Assembly: GCA_934130355.1 (NCBI GenBank)
Contig: CAKOXV010000001.1
Span: forward strand, 23,524 to 87,523
Length of the DNA stretch: 64,000 bases
Origin: an uncultured Clostridia bacterium
GTDB taxonomy: Bacteria; Bacillota; Clostridia; TANB77; CAG-508
Direction of reading: 5' to 3'
In this document: in pieces, positions 1 to 59,422 of the stretch
Layout: the number at the start of each line of letters is the position of its first letter
Numbering within the stretch: position 1 is the first letter of the stretch
The notes under the pieces: model-generated
The model's input: only the letters and a program-made list of their open reading frames with translations
The model's database searches: none
What the model was told of the DNA's origin: nothing
Program-made: the position numbers and the translations under genes

Positions 1-275
1 CTTTGGCTCTGTTGGAGTTGTTGGTTCTTCTTTTGGTTCTTCCTTTGGCTCTGTTGGTGTTGTTGGTTCTACTTTTGGTTCCTCCTTCGGCTCTGTTGGT
101 GTTGTTGGTTCTACTTTTGGTTCCTCCTTTGGCTCTGTTGGTGTTGTTGGCTCTTCTTTTGGTTCCTCCTTTGGCTCTGTTGGTGTTGTTGGTTCTACTT
201 TTGGTTCCTCCTTTGGCTCTGTTGGAGTTGTTGGTTCTACTTTTGGTTCTTCTTTTGGCTCAGTTGGGGTTACTG
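1..275 (-). repeat. Tandem 42-nt repeat, at least 6.5 units, encoding a 14-aa EEPKVEPTTPTEPK-like unit in the L,D-transpeptidase tail
   Basis: Units ctttggctctgttggtgttgttggttctacttttggttcctc start at 1, 43, 85, 127, 169 and 211, with a partial unit at 253. There are a few substitutions between units. Confidence 0.9.
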
Positions 276-1079
276 GTTTTACATAGTTTTTCCAAGGATT
301 TTCTGCATCAGGATCTGTTGGATCCCATCCTCTTACTTCTTCATCATCCGAAATTTTTTGAGCTGTTGGTTTTCCAAGTGGACCTGGGTTTGAATCTTCA
401 TAAAATTCAACTTTAGTTCCAGGCTTACAATTATCATATATCCATTTTGCATCTTGAACTGTTAGTCGTATACAACCTGCAGATGCTTTAGTTCCTAATT
501 TATCATATTCCCAATATTCCAATGTTCCTTTAGCTTTGCTTGTGTATGGTACAGAATGGAATAAAATACTACCTTTAATTCTTGTATAATATTGAGCCCA
601 TACTCCACCTACCATTTGTCCCCATGTCCATCTATCCCATTTTCCATTAGGAATTGTATATACATTTCCCGCTGCTGGTGTTGCAGTTCCAATTGAGCAT
701 AACATTGCTTTATATGGAACTGTATAATCACCATTTTCATCTTTTGTATATATCGTTACTACATTTGCCTTGTTATTTACTTTTATATAATATTTGATAT
801 TATCTGAAGTTTGAGAAGATGCCTGATTTGAATCTGTTTTAGTATCTTCCTGTTTTGGTTGTTCTTCTGTTGTTTCTTCTACTTCAGGTTCTTTCTCTTC
901 TTGCTCTTTTGGTTCTTCATTATCTTCTGTTTTCAATTCATCTGAAGCCGTAGGTATCGTTTCTCCATTATCTTGTATTGTTGATTTTTTTGATTTTACT
1001 AAACCTATAATTCCAATTACACTTAGTAATACTACTAGTAGTGCTATTACTATTAATATATACTTCTTATTTTTATTCA
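1..1079 (-). CDS. L,D-transpeptidase (YkuD domain) with N-terminal membrane anchor and C-terminal Pro/Thr/Glu/Lys repeat; the C-terminus runs off the left edge
   Basis: My own translation of the minus strand from the ATG at 1079 gives MNKNKKYILIVIALLVVLLSVIGIIGLVKSKK... It continues ...WAQYYTRIKGSILFHSVPYTSKAKGTLEYWEYDKLGTKASAGCIRLTVQDAKWIYDNCKP, i.e. the His and SxGCIR catalytic motifs. It is absent from the ORF track because there is no stop codon inside the window. Confidence 0.8.
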
Positions 1080-1107
1080 TTTGCTAATTCTTCCTTTTAT
1101 AGTAAAA

Positions 1108-10414: not shown

Positions 10415-10561
10415 ATTATTTATTCCTTTCTAATTCAAATTATAATTTCCCTATTTTAACATAATAATTATACTATATTTTTCCAAAAAAATAAAGCCTT
10501 TTTAATAAAAGACTGCATTTTTTGTTATTGATTAATACACTAAGCATATAACTGCTTGATT

Positions 10562-10855
10562 GCACAATTGCCATATATATATATTGAAAACATTCCAAAT
10601 TTTGAACAAGCTAAACTTTCACATAAAATCTAATAGTGCAAAAAGAGCCTCTTTCACTTAGTCCAAAAATTAATATATTACTATGAAATAAAGCAAAGAC
10701 CCCCGACGAAGACCCTAGCTATGTTTTTGCTATTGAATAGTAATATATTAATTTTTGACGTGAACATTCCTCTTTTTGCACTTAAGATTTTCTATGCTCA
10801 AATTTAGATGCGCAAAATTTTTCATTATTCAATATATATGATATGGCAATTGTGC
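10562..10855 (-). repeat. Extended-hairpin element, copy 1 (294 bp, inverted orientation relative to copies 2 and 3)
   Basis: It shares the conserved core and the apical loop (cccccgacgaagaccc on the + strand) with 15759-16097 and 24719-25061. Its own basal stem is gcacaattgccatat.../...atatggcaattgtgc. Confidence 0.9.
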
Positions 10856-10887
10856 TAAACTATACATTTAATTTTAAGCATATTATT

Positions 10888-15605: not shown

Positions 15606-15643
15606 TTTCTCTCCTCCTTTTTATTATGTTTCGAAATTGCATT

Positions 15644-15670
15644 TTAGCACTCGTTTTATTTGTTTGCTAA
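15644..15670. promoter_or_regulatory. CIRCE operator (HrcA binding site), second half degenerate
   Basis: TTAGCACTC-gttttattt-GTTTGCTAA compared with consensus TTAGCACTC-N9-GAGTGCTAA. Confidence 0.7.
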
Positions 15671-15695
15671 TTTCTTATATAATATACATTATTTT

Positions 15696-15722
15696 TTAGC
15701 ACTTGTCAAGTCTTTTTGCTAA
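15696..15722. promoter_or_regulatory. Second CIRCE-like operator
   Basis: TTAGCACTT-gtcaagtct-TTTTGCTAA, starting 52 bp upstream of the first CIRCE (start-to-start). Confidence 0.55.
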
Positions 15723-15758
15723 TTTTTTTTATTTTATTTATTACAAATTAAAATATAC

Positions 15759-16097
15759 CCTAATTCAAGTGGTACTCCAGGGGGTCGGGTCCATACATAT
15801 ATATTAAATAATGGAAAATTTTGTGCATCTAAACTTGAGTATAGAAAATCTTAAGTGCCAAAAGAGGAATGTTCACGTCAAAAATTAATATATTACTATT
15901 CCATGGCAAAAACATAGCTAGGGTCTTCGTCGGGGGTCTTTGCCTTATTCCATAGTAATATATTAATTTTTGGACTAAGTGAAAGAGGCGCTTTTGGCAC
16001 TATTAGATTTTATACGAAAGTTTAGCTTGTCCAAAATTTGGAATGTTTTTAATATATATGTATGGACCCGACCCCCTGGAGTACCACTTGAATTAGG
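15759..16097 (+). repeat. Extended-hairpin element, copy 2 (339 bp)
   Basis: The first 50 nt (cctaattcaagtggtactccagggggtcgggtccatacatatatattaaa) are the perfect reverse complement of the last 50 nt. The interior is an imperfect hairpin shared with copies 1 and 3. Confidence 0.95.
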
Positions 16098-16152
16098 ATA
16101 ATTAAGGGAAAAAAAGAAAGAGATTTAAAACTAATCTCTTTCTTGTAAATTT

Positions 16153-16170
16153 AAGGACTGTCCCCAAATT
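16153..16170 (-). repeat. Copy of the short dispersed motif AATTTGGGGAC(A/G)GTCC
   Basis: The + strand reads aaggactgtccccaaatt. It lies between the nrdD stop and its terminator hairpin (aagaaagagatt...aatctctttctt). Confidence 0.7.
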
Positions 16171-22998: not shown

Positions 22999-24600
22999 TT
23001 ATCCTTTAAAATCTCCTCCTCCTAAAAATTCTTTCAATAATGAATGTGATGGCACAATATCTTTAGAAATTGGTTCAAAAGAATCTAAAATCTCTAATAA
23101 TCTTTGTGCTTCTGCATATTGTGGTTGTTCATTAGTTATAGCTTTTAGTAATGGTTCAGCTTCTGTTTTTAACACTCCTAATTCATATATTAGTGAAGTA
23201 TTAAATATGCTATCAGCTTCTTCTTGGAATGGGAAGATATTTTTTACTTCGCCTGCATTTACATTCTTCCAACTTGAAATTGTTTGTGCTGCACTATATC
23301 CTCTAAATTGATTATCTCTAACTATTCTTCTTATCAGTCTTGTATCTGTTGTAGAAATTCTATTGAAACGATCCATATTAAGAACTGTTAATGCACTTAT
23401 ATAAATCTTGTATTTTTGTTCTTGAGGGATTCTTGAAGTTAATTGATCATTTAAACAGTGAATTCCCTCTATTACTAATATTTCATCATCATGTAATCTT
23501 AATTTATTTCCATTATATCTCTTAGTTCCTTCATGAAAATCAAATTCTGGCATTTCAACTTCTTCACCATTTAATAAAGCTATTAAATGACTATTGAATA
23601 ACTCTGTATCAATAGCTTCTATGCACTCAAAATCAGGTTCACCTTTTGCATTTAATGGTGTGTCTTTTCTTTCTACAAAATAATTGTCAACAGAAATTGT
23701 AACAGGTTTTAATCCATTAATTCTTAATTGAATTCCTAATCTTTGAGCAAAAGTTGTTTTTCCTGATGAAGATGGTCCTGCAATTAAAATCATTTTAACA
23801 CCTTTTCTTGCTGCAATTTTATCTGCTATTTGTGATATTTTTTTCTCATGCAAAGCTTCTGATAATAATATTAAATCTTTGATTTTATTTTCTCTTACTA
23901 TTTTATTTAATCTATATACAGTGCCAACATCTAATACCTTATAAATTGTTTCATATTCTTGTAAAGCCCAAAGCAATTTTTTAGTTTCTTTAAATTGAGG
24001 CAAAACATTTACATTATTACTACTTGGATATCTTAATAAAAATCCATAACTATATTTTTGTAACTCAAAAATTTTAGTTGCTCCTGTATGTGTTGCTATT
24101 GTTCCATATAAATAATTAAAATAATCTTCGCAAAAGCACATATTAATTTCTTGCTTTTCTTCTGATTCAAGTTGTAAACGTCCTTTTGTACTATCCTTTT
24201 CATTGAAAAATTCTTCTGCTTCTTTTCTTGTCATAGTTCTTTTTTCTATTTTTAAATCTTTTTCAATTATTTCTGCCATTTTAATTTTTACATTTTCAAG
24301 CATTTCTGTTGTTACTTCCATATTTTCTATAGTACAATACATTGAATTTGATAATTGATAATCTACCATTACATCTACTTTTGGATATAGTTTCCAAAAT
24401 GCCATACCCATTATATAAGTTAAAGTTCTTCTATATATTTTCATTCCTTCTTTTGAATTTATATTAATTAATTCAATTTTTCCATCTGGTTCAACTACAT
24501 CATCTAAGTTTTTATATTCATTGTTATATTTAGCCCCTACTACTGGGTATTCACTTTTTTCTATTTCTTCTTTTCGTATTTCTGATATTTTTTGTTTCAT
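22999..24600 (-). CDS. Uridine kinase-family P-loop nucleoside kinase with an N-terminal ThrRS-like (TGS/SAD-type) extension
   Basis: 533 aa with P-loop IAGPSSSGKTTFAQRL in the C-terminal half. The architecture is as seen in clostridial long Udk-like proteins. Confidence 0.65.
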   Translation of the reverse strand: MKQKISEIRKEEIEKSEYPVVGAKYNNEYKNLDDVVEPDGKIELININSKEGMKIYRRTLTYIMGMAFWKLYPKVDVMVDYQLSNSMYCTIENMEVTTEMLENVKIKMAEIIEKDLKIEKRTMTRKEAEEFFNEKDSTKGRLQLESEEKQEINMCFCEDYFNYLYGTIATHTGATKIFELQKYSYGFLLRYPSSNNVNVLPQFKETKKLLWALQEYETIYKVLDVGTVYRLNKIVRENKIKDLILLSEALHEKKISQIADKIAARKGVKMILIAGPSSSGKTTFAQRLGIQLRINGLKPVTISVDNYFVERKDTPLNAKGEPDFECIEAIDTELFNSHLIALLNGEEVEMPEFDFHEGTKRYNGNKLRLHDDEILVIEGIHCLNDQLTSRIPQEQKYKIYISALTVLNMDRFNRISTTDTRLIRRIVRDNQFRGYSAAQTISSWKNVNAGEVKNIFPFQEEADSIFNTSLIYELGVLKTEAEPLLKAITNEQPQYAEAQRLLEILDSFEPISKDIVPSHSLLKEFLGGGDFKG

Positions 24601-24718
24601 CTTATCTACTCCTTCTATAATTTACTTAGGTTTTCATCCCTATTTTACTATATCTATTTTTTAAAAGCAAGTAATATTACTATGTGGTACAAAAAATAGT
24701 TAATATTTTAATATATTG

Positions 24719-25061
24719 CTTACCACAAATACCTTGCACGCACCCTTGGACCTGTACATATATATTAAATAATGGAAAATTTTGTGCATCTAAACTTGAG
24801 TATAGAAAATCTTAAAGTACATACACGAGGAATGCTCACATCAAAAATGAATATATTACTATTCCATGGCAAAAACATAGCTGGGGTCTTCGTCGGGGGT
24901 CTTTGCCTTATTCCATAGTAACATATTCATTTTTGGACTAAGTGAGAGAGGCTCGGGTTGTACTTTTAGATTTTATACGAAAGTTCAGCTTGTCCAAAAT
25001 TTGGAATGTCTTTAATATATATGTACAGGTCCAAGGGTGCGTGCAAGGTATTTGTGGTAAG
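24719..25061 (+). repeat. Extended-hairpin element, copy 3 (343 bp perfect-armed part; imperfect pairing continues to 24700-25080)
   Basis: cttaccacaaataccttgcacgcacccttggacctgtacatatatattaaa is mirrored exactly at the 3' end. The core is shared with copies 1 and 2. Confidence 0.95.
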
Positions 25062-25144
25062 TAATATGTTAAAGTATTAATTAGTAGTAAAAAATATGAA
25101 TATTTATATTATATATGTATATAATTATTTTAGAGGTGGTATAA

Positions 25145-25312
25145 ATGAATTTTAATAGAGTACAAGAAGTCTTAAATAATAAAGAAAAAGTTGATATTTA
25201 TTATGATGAAAGACCAGTATGGATTCAGAGTACTAATAATCACGTTGCAAAAATTGGATTTATAGATAATTTTGAAGAGCGTGATGTTTTTATAGAAGAT
25301 TTATATGAATAA
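25145..25312 (+). CDS. sspH: Small acid-soluble spore protein, H-type (SspH-like), 55 aa
   Basis: Own translation: MNFNRVQEVLNNKEKVDIYYDERPVWIQSTNNHVAKIGFIDNFEERDVFIEDLYE. This follows the SspH pattern (NxxRAxEI...VxYxGxPVYIq...v....LeE). GAGGTGG RBS is present. It is too short for the supplied ORF track. Confidence 0.65.
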   Translation: MNFNRVQEVLNNKEKVDIYYDERPVWIQSTNNHVAKIGFIDNFEERDVFIEDLYE

Positions 25313-26548: not shown

Positions 26549-26622
<74 letters not shown>

Positions 26623-26654: not shown

Positions 26655-26728
<74 letters not shown>

Positions 26729-55930: not shown

Positions 55931-58288
55931 ATGAATAGCAATTTAAAAAAATTAGAATTTGACAAGATTTTAGAAAATATATCAAATTATTGTAAAACAT
56001 ATATAGGGAAAAATTATGTAGCAGATTTACGACCATCACATGACAAAGAAGAAGTGCAAAAATGGCTAGATGAAACATCACAAGGAGTTATATTAATTCA
56101 AAGAAATAGCACTCCTCCACTTGGCGAAATTGCTGATATAACAGTTTATTTAAAAGCTTTAGAGAGTTATGGTACTCTTAGCATAAAAGCTTTATTAGAA
56201 ATTCAAAACATTTTGCGAATGTCTATGAATTTAAAAAATTATTTTGAAAAAGATTTTCTTGAAACATCAGATTTTTCTGCAATTGAACAATATTTTCTTG
56301 ATTTATATTCAAATCCAAGTATTGTATCCACTTTTGCAAAATCAATTGTTGATGAAGATACTATTGCAGATACAGCTTCTTCAAAGTTACAAGATATTCG
56401 TAGAAGAGAACGTAAAATTGAACAAGATATCCGTTCAAAACTAAATACTATTCTACATTCATCAACATATTCAAAATATATGAGAGAAAATATTGTAACA
56501 ATACGTAATGGACGTTTTGTAGTTCCTGTTAAAGAAGAATATCGTAGCTCAGTTAAAGGGTTTGTACATGACATGTCAAGTAGTGGTTCAACTGTATTTA
56601 TAGAACCTATTTCAGTTTTTGATTTAAATAATGAATTATCAAATCTACATATTGAAGAAAGTCTTGAAATAGAAAGAATTTTGCAAAATTTAAGTGCTTC
56701 TCTATATCCTTACACAAAAGAACTTGAAAATAATGTTCAAATAATAGGAAAACTTGATTTTATATTTGCAAAAGCACATTATTCTTTAGACTTACATTGT
56801 TCTGAGCCTGAAATCAATTGTTCTAAAATAATAAGACTTAAAAATGCACGTCATCCTTTAATAGATCCTGAAAAAGTAGTTCCATCTTCTTTAGAATTAG
56901 GAAATGATTTTTCAACTTTAATAATTACAGGTCCAAACACAGGTGGAAAAACTGTAACTCTAAAAACAATTGGTTTATTAACAGCAATGGCCTGTAGTGG
57001 ATTAAATATCCCTGCTGACCAACATTCAAGCATATATGTATTTGACCACATTTTTGCGGATATTGGAGATGAACAAAGTATTAGTGAATCTTTAAGTACT
57101 TTTTCATCACATATTAGTAATATTGTAAATATTACTAATAATGCTACAAAAGACAGTTTAATTCTTGTAGATGAACTTGGCTCTGGAACAGACCCTCTTG
57201 AAGGTGCACATCTTGCAATAAGTATTTTACAATATTTTACTGAACTTGGTGCAATTACTGTTGCAACTTCACATTATCAAGAATTAAAACAATATGCATT
57301 AATAACTCCTCGTTTTAAAAATGCTAGTGTTGAGTTTTCTTTAGAAAGTTTAAAGCCAACTTACAGATTATTGATTGGAATCCCTGGAAAAAGTAATGCT
57401 TTTGAAATAAGTAAAAAATTGGGGCTTTCTCCTCAGATTATAGAACGTGCTTTATCTATGATTGACAAAGAAACTATTCATCTAGAAGATTTACTAAAAA
57501 CTATTTATGATGATAAAGCTAAAATTGAGGATGAAAAAATTCGTACAGCTAAAGCTTTAGCAGAAGCTGAAGAATTGAAAAAAAGTTTAAAACATCAAAA
57601 TTCAGATGTTATAAATAAAGAAAAAGAATTAATTGCTAATGCTAAACAAGAAGCTAAACAAATTTTGCTTGATGCAAAAGAAACTGCAAATTCTATAATA
57701 AAAGATATAAACAATTCTACTTCAGCTTCTAGCGCTAATAAACTTAGAAACAAACTAAACGAACAAATATCATCTATAAAGACTGATGTTAAAGATATTT
57801 CAATTTCTGAACCAATTAAGCCTGAAGATATAAAATTAGGTGAAACTGTTTTTGTTTCTAATTTAAATGCACAAGGTACTATAATTTCTAATATTTCTAA
57901 AGATAATACTGTCCAAGTTCAGGTTGGTTCAATGAAAATGAAAGTTGATTTAAAGTATTTGCAAAAAGTTTCTGGTCCTGATTCTACCAATAAATCTAAG
58001 GCTCAAACTCATTATGAACATTCTTCATTTAAATCTCAACATGTGAGTCCAGAGATAAATGTAATTGGTTTAACTGTAGATCAAGCAATTCCTATTATTG
58101 ATAAATATTTGGATGATTGCTATATTGCAAAACTTTCTCCTGTTCGTATTGTCCATGGTAAAGGCACTGGTGCTTTGCGTAATGGTATTCACTCTTACCT
58201 AAAAAGAAATAAATATGTTGATAGTTTTAGACTTGGCTCTTTTAGTGAAGGTGAAATGGGCGTTACTGTTGTTAGTTTGGCAATTTGA
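55931..58288 (+). CDS. mutS2: Endonuclease MutS2 (recombination-inhibiting MutS paralog with Smr domain)
   Basis: Walker A ITGPNTGGKT, DELGSGTDP, and a C-terminal Smr (EINVIGLTVDQA...VRIVHGKGTGALR). The start was moved to the ATG at 55931 after GGAGG. Confidence 0.93.
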   Translation: MNSNLKKLEFDKILENISNYCKTYIGKNYVADLRPSHDKEEVQKWLDETSQGVILIQRNSTPPLGEIADITVYLKALESYGTLSIKALLEIQNILRMSMNLKNYFEKDFLETSDFSAIEQYFLDLYSNPSIVSTFAKSIVDEDTIADTASSKLQDIRRRERKIEQDIRSKLNTILHSSTYSKYMRENIVTIRNGRFVVPVKEEYRSSVKGFVHDMSSSGSTVFIEPISVFDLNNELSNLHIEESLEIERILQNLSASLYPYTKELENNVQIIGKLDFIFAKAHYSLDLHCSEPEINCSKIIRLKNARHPLIDPEKVVPSSLELGNDFSTLIITGPNTGGKTVTLKTIGLLTAMACSGLNIPADQHSSIYVFDHIFADIGDEQSISESLSTFSSHISNIVNITNNATKDSLILVDELGSGTDPLEGAHLAISILQYFTELGAITVATSHYQELKQYALITPRFKNASVEFSLESLKPTYRLLIGIPGKSNAFEISKKLGLSPQIIERALSMIDKETIHLEDLLKTIYDDKAKIEDEKIRTAKALAEAEELKKSLKHQNSDVINKEKELIANAKQEAKQILLDAKETANSIIKDINNSTSASSANKLRNKLNEQISSIKTDVKDISISEPIKPEDIKLGETVFVSNLNAQGTIISNISKDNTVQVQVGSMKMKVDLKYLQKVSGPDSTNKSKAQTHYEHSSFKSQHVSPEINVIGLTVDQAIPIIDKYLDDCYIAKLSPVRIVHGKGTGALRNGIHSYLKRNKYVDSFRLGSFSEGEMGVTVVSLAI

Positions 58289-58295
58289 CAAAATA

Positions 58296-58360
58296 GGGAC
58301 GGTCCTTTTCTTCGCAAATTTGGGGACAGACCTTTGTTAAAAAAAGGACCGTCCCCATTT
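58296..58360. repeat. Three copies of the GGGGAC(G/A)G(T/A)CC motif, two direct and one inverted, forming the mutS2/spoVT convergent terminator region
   Basis: The sequence reads gggacggtcctttt, then aatttggggacagaccttt, then ggaccgtccccattt. Confidence 0.8.
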
Positions 58361-58380
58361 TGTCACCTTGCCATTTATTC

Positions 58381-59071: not shown

Positions 59072-59422
59072 GGGGATGTAATGGTTTCGACATTACATTT
59101 GAAGCATGAATAGCGAGTAGTGGATTCTCGTTTGCCACTATAAAAACGGGAAATTTAAATATAAACGCTGATAATAGAGAATTAGCATTTGCTGCTTAGT
59201 TGCAGTAACGCCTGTTAAAATATCCCCACATATTTTAATTTGGTGTCATTTAGTGGGAAACAAAACTGTTTTTTCTACGAAAACAGTGGGTATTTAGTAG
59301 ATATGTTTGATAATTGTTTGTTTATTAATGATTATTAAATGAATTTTAATAATAAACTGCACTCGGAGAAATTTGTGTGAATTGTGTTATGGACAGGGGT
59401 TCGACTCCCCTCATCTCCACCA
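59072..59422 (+). ncRNA. ssrA: tmRNA (SsrA); predicted tag ADNRELAFAA
   Basis: 5' end is GGGGATGTAATGGTTTCGAC. The 3' end is the tRNA-like GGACAGGGGTTCGACTCCCCTCATCTCCACCA. The internal reading frame GCT GAT AAT AGA GAA TTA GCA TTT GCT GCT TAG follows ...AAATATAAAC. Confidence 0.93.

Follow-up and report, generated by a model that had tools for sequence, protein, structure and literature searches.

The palindrome between sspH and the PRK-like gene

The 64,000-nt stretch analysed here (the window; positions 23,524 to 87,523 of contig CAKOXV010000001.1, assembly GCA_934130355.1, from an uncultured Clostridia bacterium) contains three copies of a palindromic element, all of them intergenic and none inside an open reading frame (ORF). 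An earlier reading of the letters, referred to below as the original prediction, had described the third copy (copy 3) as a hairpin whose base pairs change in a compensatory manner. Copy 3 was re-examined by comparing the window with loci from contigs of other strains and of related metagenome-assembled genomes (MAGs), designated by L numbers. The element occupies 387 nt (24697-25083), is assigned to the + strand by its G-rich apex motif, and lies between divergent genes in the spacer separating sspH from a gene for a PRK-like protein. It is delimited by its inverted repeat, its rod-like fold and its absence from the orthologous site in sister species.

Copy 3 is a near-perfect palindrome, an inverted-repeat search returning 73-nt arms that are 95% complementary. 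The outermost pairing is weak, joining 24700-24718 to 25062-25080 on the + strand with three mismatches, at 24706, 24712 and 24718, each of which is a G.T on that strand; the left half can be aligned to the arms of copy 1 and another copy. This outward continuation had been described with the same number of mismatches and is confirmed, although the right-hand string begins with t (25062) and not with c. Inside it lie the copy-specific arms of 38 nt, the left one (cttaccacaaataccttgcacgcacccttggacctgta, 24719-24756, + strand) having 50% G+C in a 28% G+C genome and the right one (25024-25061, + strand) being its exact reverse complement in the window, as originally described. The perfect repeat is in reality 51 nt (24719-24769 against 25011-25061) rather than 38, because pairing runs into the ends of the conserved core. 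The arm has no detectable similarity to that of copy 2 (z = -0.9 in an arm alignment), in agreement with the original prediction, and is related to the arm of copy 1 (z = 5.4) and to that of a further copy in L090 (z = 6.9).

The conserved core of ~267 nt (CATATATATT...AATATATATG, 24757-25023, + strand) is common to the three window copies at 88-94% identity, and its exact inversion is found in other strains. Within it, an inner helix formed by 24814-24830 (aaagtacatacacgagg) and 24950-24968 (ggctcgggttgtactttta), both read on the + strand, has been rewritten, GTGCCAAAAG/CTTTTGGCAC of copy 2 being replaced by AAGTACATACACGAGG/(G)GCTCGGGTTGTACTT in copy 3. The original prediction held that this second module varies while staying paired; the replacement is real, but the helix is only partly paired in copy 3. 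Further inwards, the apical unit begins with a 21-nt AT helix that is found family-wide (24842-24862 against 24915-24935, + strand). Here ATGAAT/ATTCAT in copy 3 corresponds to ATTAAT/ATTAAT in copies 1 and 2, so that the predicted T:A to G:C double change is confirmed at the pair G24849:C24928. Two features of the same region had been missed, a second mirrored change in which C24835 is paired with G24946 (T:A in other strains) and an uncompensated A.C at A24855/C24922. The helix encloses an asymmetric segment of ~52 nt (24863-24914, + strand), the smallest unit seen flipped, which includes a 5-bp covarying helix and the conserved apex GGGTCTTCGTCGGGGGTC (24884-24901, + strand), present as three exact copies in the window where none is expected. 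Together with the two T's that follow, to 24903, the apex comprises two direct GGGTCTT repeats.

Copy 3 is absent from the same site in the sister species. In L102-L105 gene order is the same and the PRK-like protein is 83-86% identical, while the spacer measures 125-215 nt compared with 544 nt in the window, lacks the core and both arms, and aligns to the window flanks. These empty sites set the limits of the insertion at about 24672-25094. As neither arm is found in them, a pre-existing target palindrome and an inverted copy of the target flank were both ruled out as the origin of the arms. An imperfect direct repeat brackets the element on the + strand, gtggtacaaaaaa (24684-24696) abutting the palindrome on the left and gtagtaaaaaa (25084-25094) standing on the right; copy 1 is flanked by ATATGCTTA twice and the direct repeat at copy 2 is only about 6-7 nt. 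Judged from their letters, these flanking repeats may be target-site duplications.

Mirrored changes and inverted segments among strains

Mirrored substitutions separate strains whose flanks do not differ. The window and L089 differ at 7 positions in 3318 nt, all of them within 24835-24946 and none in 2931 nt of flanks, a distribution for which we estimate a chance probability of about 3e-7. Four of the seven form two complementary pairs, T:A to C:G and T:A to G:C. At copy 2, the window differs from L127 by a G:C to T:A double transversion at 15783/16073 between identical flanks. Of 37 arm positions of copy 2, about 11 differ from L128, about 7 in mirrored fashion, with core and flanks differing by ~1.5%. 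The arms of copy 3, perfect in the window, contain five mismatches in L085/L087, located in the right arm at 25039, 25041, 25048, 25050 and 25054, and core orientation differs between the same alleles; L084 and L090 carry other variants of the right arm, and the left arm shows no differences among all strains that carry it. The occurrence of mirrored changes between strains with identical flanks, among them transversions for which no wobble intermediate exists, indicates that they arise fast.

Each of the three window copies has its core (~265 nt) inverted in other strains of the species. At the copy 3 locus of L085/L087 the entire core is inverted between the same flanks, the whole element being 93.8% identical to the reverse complement; the inverted allele retains the inner helix specific to copy 3, and the contigs encode an identical SspH protein. 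The core of copy 2 (15756-16100, + strand, with perfect 39-nt arms) is inverted in L128, where 261/265 positions are identical to the reverse complement, and that of copy 1 (about 10545-10870, - strand, with shorter arms) is inverted in L115 and L121 (262/264). A large chromosomal inversion between copies 1 and 3 was ruled out, both flanks being collinear in the strains with inverted cores.

Smaller segments are flipped as well. In L084 only the apical unit of ~52 nt is inverted at copy 3, together with a deletion of the left half of the element, and the inversions at this locus therefore use two different, non-homologous arm pairs, one for the whole core and one for the apical unit alone. In sister-species MAGs the apex is flipped at 4 of 9 orthologous loci, and alignment of two of these pairs showed inversion of only the ~52-nt segment between 20-bp arms. 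L084, L117 and L128 lie on one 97.9-kb contig, in which copy 1 is unflipped, copy 2 flipped and copy 3 apex-flipped. Three loci in three states on a single contig indicate that flips are local and independent at each locus. Orientation is uniform within a flank haplotype (5/5 and 3/3 contigs at copy 3; 9 window-like contigs at copy 1), suggesting that inversions are rare events and not rapid switching.

Two observations concern the contigs themselves. In L090, at about 150-215, the right arm and flank of copy 3 adjoin a left arm (…GCTTAACTCAAAGGACTTGACAGCTCAGTTGATTCATA) and an upstream gene that are not those of copy 3. Whether this contig is a chimera of assembly or a product of recombination between two copies, it exposes a fourth copy's arm. 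Numerous metagenome contigs break off within the element, among them L096-L098, L100 and further short ones.

The apical hairpin family and its covariation

The apex defines a wider set of elements in uncultured, spore-forming gut Clostridia of ~28% G+C. Searching by the exact 18-mer GGGTCTTCGTCGGGGGTC returned ~60 copies in related Clostridia MAGs (BRZ_EF bin101, BRZ_QS bin15, E14 bin256, SGB_3412 and a goat-colon MAG), all of them intergenic. The exact search misses loop variants such as those at L051 7778 and L065 2157, which have the usual stems and a different loop, e.g. CTGGGGTTTTCGTACCAGGGTCGAC. In the JGI metagenomes, where the lineage is rare, there were two matches for the apex and none for the core layer, and viral contigs matched neither the apex 18-mer nor a 29-nt stretch of the copy 3 core. 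A plasmid or phage origin was rejected, the 267-nt core being without a match among PLSDB plasmids or INPHARED phages.

What is shared across the family is only an apical hairpin of ~100 nt, consisting of the 21-bp AT stem, asymmetric internal loops, the 5-bp helix and a G-rich loop. The outer layers vary, many relatives having arms built of GGGGACGGTCC units and some copies being bare apical units; the species of the window has palindromic layers of its own, first the ~267-nt core and then the copy-specific arms. The centre of the family is conserved and its termini are the most variable part. A 96-nt hairpin between mutS2 and spoVT (58278-58373, no strand assigned) is composed of arms of the GGGACGGTCC type without an apical unit, and its orthologous site in MAG BRZ_EF contains such arms together with the apical unit. 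The histories of the layers are therefore separate, and it is in this sense that the elements are nested. An origin of the arms as spacer-like foreign DNA was rejected, as they had no match among the compared loci and the arms of different copies are partly homologous.

The motifs of the arms and apex recur in the window. GGGACGGTCC, with its variant GGGACAGTCC, occurs five times compared with 0.07 expected: as the 27-nt tandem AATTTGGGGACGGTCCTTTTTTT x2 at 39745-39819, in the hairpin arms at 58278-58373, and singly at 16155-16164, immediately following nrdD. In related MAGs, the outer arms of most members of the family are made of this motif. GGGGTC is found seven times, six of them within elements (motifs of this type at 10698-10715, 15781-15792, 15921-15938, 16065-16075 and 24883-24901), and the arms of copy 2 contain GGGGGTCGGGTCC, a sequence similar to the pair of GGGTC repeats at the apex.

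Copies are found in all intergenic contexts, beside unrelated genes, and mostly downstream of them. Only 1-2 of about 50 lie in divergent promoter regions, and among the related loci L001-L083 ten spacers are convergent and one is divergent. In L083 (4079-4312, MAG E14__bin256), three apical motifs are arranged head-to-tail with a 108-nt period, forming a tandem array of the element in which right-arm and left-arm halves alternate, so that neighbouring units could pair in two registers.

The original prediction had proposed folding the copies as both RNA and single-stranded DNA and testing them for covariation. A single strand of copy 3 folds as one long rod with a stability far beyond chance in both cases, at -194.7 kcal/mol as RNA (z = -22.7) and -110 kcal/mol as DNA (z = -19.9), and the two DNA strands fold alike (-110.0 and -108.4 kcal/mol). 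In an alignment of 52 apical units, 98.4% of stem cells are Watson-Crick paired and 18 of the 26 pairs have changed on both sides. Two-sided cells number 152 compared with 5 one-sided cells (G-U intermediates), values reached in 0 of 500 shuffles, and no slid register of the alignment comes close to the observed pairing. Non-canonical pairs are few, about 10 being GU/UG and about 9 AC/CA.

From the first pair of compensatory changes it had been concluded that structure is maintained and not just sequence. The first part of this conclusion is upheld, pairing being kept while sequence changes; the pattern, however, fits copying of DNA from arm to arm. Gene conversion between the arms of a DNA palindrome had been named at the outset as the circumstance that would undo the conclusion, and the mirrored changes, the inversions and the near absence of G-U pairs correspond to it. 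The covariation shows that the arms are kept complementary as DNA and not that an RNA is under selection, for which no evidence was found.

Probable templating between DNA arms and its alternatives

We consider it probable, as a single joint reading, that copy 3 belongs to an undescribed family of non-coding, intergenic nested ('Russian-doll') palindromic repeats resembling MITEs (miniature inverted-repeat transposable elements) or repetitive extragenic palindromic (REP) sequences, and that its arms stay mirrored because one arm is copied at the DNA level from its partner, which also inverts the segment in the middle. While DNA is replicated or repaired, either arm of the inverted repeat would act as template for its partner, through gene conversion from arm to arm or through template switching within or between molecules. 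Mutations of one arm would then appear in mirror image in its partner, diverged arms would become perfect again, the segment between them could be inverted in a flip-flop manner, and half-palindrome deletions would occur. As any arm pair could act, the process would operate at each nested level. We infer that template switching provides the enzymology and a transposase the spread of the elements, with no host function required.

Homogenisation of inverted-repeat arms, reversible inversion of the spacer and instantaneous compensatory changes are reported consequences of template switching between such arms (PMC8604942, PMC8794818, PMC13100816), and it is their combined occurrence here that we read as arm-to-arm templating in a DNA palindrome. 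The likeness to the Ripley model for quasipalindromes described in the same papers extends to imperfect arms becoming perfect, instant mirrored changes of several bases, the use of any arm pair and the absence of need for a dedicated recombinase. The system differs in that the flipped spacers are about 52 and about 265 nt, compared with a few nucleotides in the cited yeast and rRNA cases, and in that it is a multicopy mobile repeat with several nested levels whose arms evolve much faster than their surroundings. An analogy also exists with the terminal hairpins of parvoviruses and poxviruses, which maintain the ends of linear replicons by hairpin transfer and are resolved by a dedicated nickase. 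There too an asymmetric hairpin tip occurs in two inverted forms, flip and flop, and arms are regenerated from each other, whereas the elements described here are internal chromosomal repeats.

Several observations weigh against arm-to-arm templating of a mobile repeat as a complete account. Nearly all copies keep their asymmetric internal loops and the 18-nt apex; unrestrained arm copying should erase asymmetry, and some constraint is therefore implied, be it a site for a protein, a signal for mobilisation or a spread that is very recent. The G-rich strand of the apex corresponds to the coding strand in 23 of the 31 co-directional contexts (L001-L083, orthologous duplicates removed), a bias not expected if flipping were purely neutral. 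Nor would templating by itself predict that arms diverge at about 15 times the rate of flanks. The two mirrored pairs of copy 3 cannot be explained by one long template switch; because the asymmetric internal loop that separates them is unaltered, either two short events or conversion by an unseen paralogue would be needed, and no donor paralogue for the variant cluster at 24835-24946 was found among the compared loci. Candidate target-site duplications are imperfect and unequal in length across the three copies. No transposase partner was detected, an all-against-all ORF comparison of about 60 loci (8-kb pieces) revealing no multicopy protein; in addition, a Pfam scan of 10 window ORFs identified housekeeping genes only and no transposase or recombinase. 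Orientation, finally, is known from assembled contigs alone, so that switching within populations, and hence a programmed mechanism, may occur. With respect to the fast arms, which have about 50% G+C in the 28% G+C genome, GC-biased repair of arm mismatches may be responsible, a proposal that fits the two AT to GC mirrored changes of copy 3.

The most serious alternative, which we regard as possible though distinctly less probable, is that the hairpin is selected for mobilisation as single-stranded DNA in the manner of REPINs or IS200, by an enzyme of HUH/Y1 type using the GGGTC motifs of the apex as recognition or cleavage site. Only copies with an intact stem would spread, which would generate covariation across the family, and the process could coexist with arm-to-arm templating; selection for the hairpin in single-stranded DNA during mobilisation may take place. 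Compensatory changes are known for REPIN hairpins (PMC3116915). In the present family the stems vary around a conserved centre, the elements are insertions relative to the sister species, GGGTC/GGGGTC motifs are concentrated in them, and the apex is biased to the coding strand, 23 contexts against 8. Single-strand transposons such as IS608 have an orientation bias linked to replication, which this strand bias resembles. Mobilisation does not, however, explain mirrored changes in situ or inversions between near-identical strains, and no Y1/RAYT-like or other multicopy gene was found near the about 60 copies or in the 10 scanned window ORFs.

Comparison with known mobile hairpins is similarly divided. 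Like the REPINs of the REPIN/RAYT system (PMC3116915), the elements are intergenic, non-coding, multicopy hairpins with two-sided compensatory changes and with higher-order and tandem arrangements. Their layout is nevertheless the reverse, REPIN ends being conserved and the middle variable; they measure 200-390 nt rather than about 100 nt, no RAYT was found in the 8-kb pieces or the window, and the host is a low-G+C Clostridia lineage and not a proteobacterium. Bacterial MITEs such as Correia, RUP, ERIC and bcr1 elements are likewise small, non-coding foldback sequences that occur in many copies, show presence/absence variation and flanking direct repeats, and nest, and in all of these respects they are alike. 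Classical MITEs have conserved terminal inverted repeats matching an insertion sequence (IS), whereas the termini are the most variable part here and no parent IS is known.

A stronger form of enzyme involvement, in which the G-rich apex is the recognition site of a hairpin-specific enzyme (an HUH/Y1 nickase or a recombinase) that spreads the elements and drives both flip-flop and arm hypervariation, appears doubtful. GGGTC/GGTCC motifs do recur in the arms as in the apex and, if this were correct, the palindromes of the family would not be passive but would serve across the genome as hairpin switches or diversifiers driven by an enzyme.

We consider it equally unlikely that the element is a programmed invertible switch (inverton), in which a site-specific recombinase would flip apex or core and cause phase variation of neighbouring genes. 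As in invertons and invertible promoters of the PhaseFinder type (PMC11892184, PMC11602134), inverted repeats bracket a segment seen in both orientations, here at every locus examined, the part that flips being asymmetric and conserved. The genes on either side of copy 3 are divergent, and in some relatives a promoter-like site (TTGACC-16/18-TAAAAT) overlaps the 5-bp helix and right arm. In the window copy, however, no promoter-like site was found, the promoter-like hexamers of L005 point both ways, and most copies are downstream of genes. An outward promoter in the apical unit is thus not supported for the window copy. Neither invertase nor other recombinase was found in the scanned ORFs, and the several nested breakpoints, with two non-homologous arm pairs mediating inversion at one locus, are unlike an inverton. 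A ~52-nt segment between 20-bp arms would also be very short for synapsis of duplex sites, and the presence of one orientation per flank haplotype, apparently fixed in each, points to rare events. Sites resembling Xer/dif or hix in the arms amounted to weak AT-rich similarity by eye and were dropped.

A structured non-coding or cis-regulatory RNA under purifying selection is very improbable. The extreme folding z-scores, the strong covariation and a + strand fold 17.7 kcal/mol more stable than that of the - strand are what such an RNA would present. Against these stand the near lack of G-U intermediates, the absence of the element from the same site in the sister species, the occurrence of copies in every intergenic context beside unrelated genes, and its inversion relative to flanking genes in other strains; as a consequence of core inversion, transcription would yield the complement of a sense-specific RNA. 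Functional bacterial RNAs do not typically contain perfect duplexes of 38-51 bp. Rfam yielded no match to the element at gathering thresholds over the whole window or at E <= 10 on 24600-25200, the only hits being tmRNA and tRNAs. A scan of 24600-25200 scored no intrinsic terminator; runs of A and T border the hairpins, which are mostly 3' of genes and may have some terminator-like effect.

Metagenome assembly error at palindromes, the least probable explanation of the inversions, is favoured by the origin of all comparison sequences in short-read metagenome contigs, by the many contigs broken within the element (L096-L098, L100) and by the resemblance of L090 to a hybrid of two copies, but the inverted alleles come from different samples and assemblers (SPAdes and MEGAHIT k141), contain perfect repeats of about 28 nt, shorter than the assumed assembly k-mers, have their own substitutions in arms and flanks, track flank haplotypes, and are matched by the same flipping between curated MAGs of sister species.

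Arm-to-arm templating would make these elements a natural case in which textbook compensatory base-pair changes originate from DNA mechanics rather than from selection on RNA structure, and a reason for caution when RNAs are sought by covariation in genomes rich in repeats. Where strong covariation lacks G-U intermediates and is accompanied by loop inversion, it should be read as the signature of a palindrome. The analysis also adds an undescribed family of repeats, from uncultured Clostridia of human and animal guts. With every examined copy flipped somewhere in the species and the arms evolving fast, it offers a usable system for template switching, homogenisation and possibly GC-biased conversion in bacteria. 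The elements break short-read assemblies and could be mistaken for programmed invertons.

Other features of the window were recorded in passing. At 1-336, inside the ORF at 1-1080 (- strand), a decaying 42-nt tandem repeat comprises at least six units that are 84-95% identical and would correspond to a 14-residue protein repeat. Two CIRCE-like inverted repeats (TTAGCACTC…TGCTAA) are located at 15641-15725, upstream of hrcA and between it and copy 2, and are presumably the expected HrcA operator of the hrcA-grpE-dnaK-dnaJ operon. The - strand carries a pair of identical tRNA genes at a spacing of 106 nt (26552-26622 and 26658-26728), and a complete tmRNA gene is present at 59072-59422 (154.6 bits).

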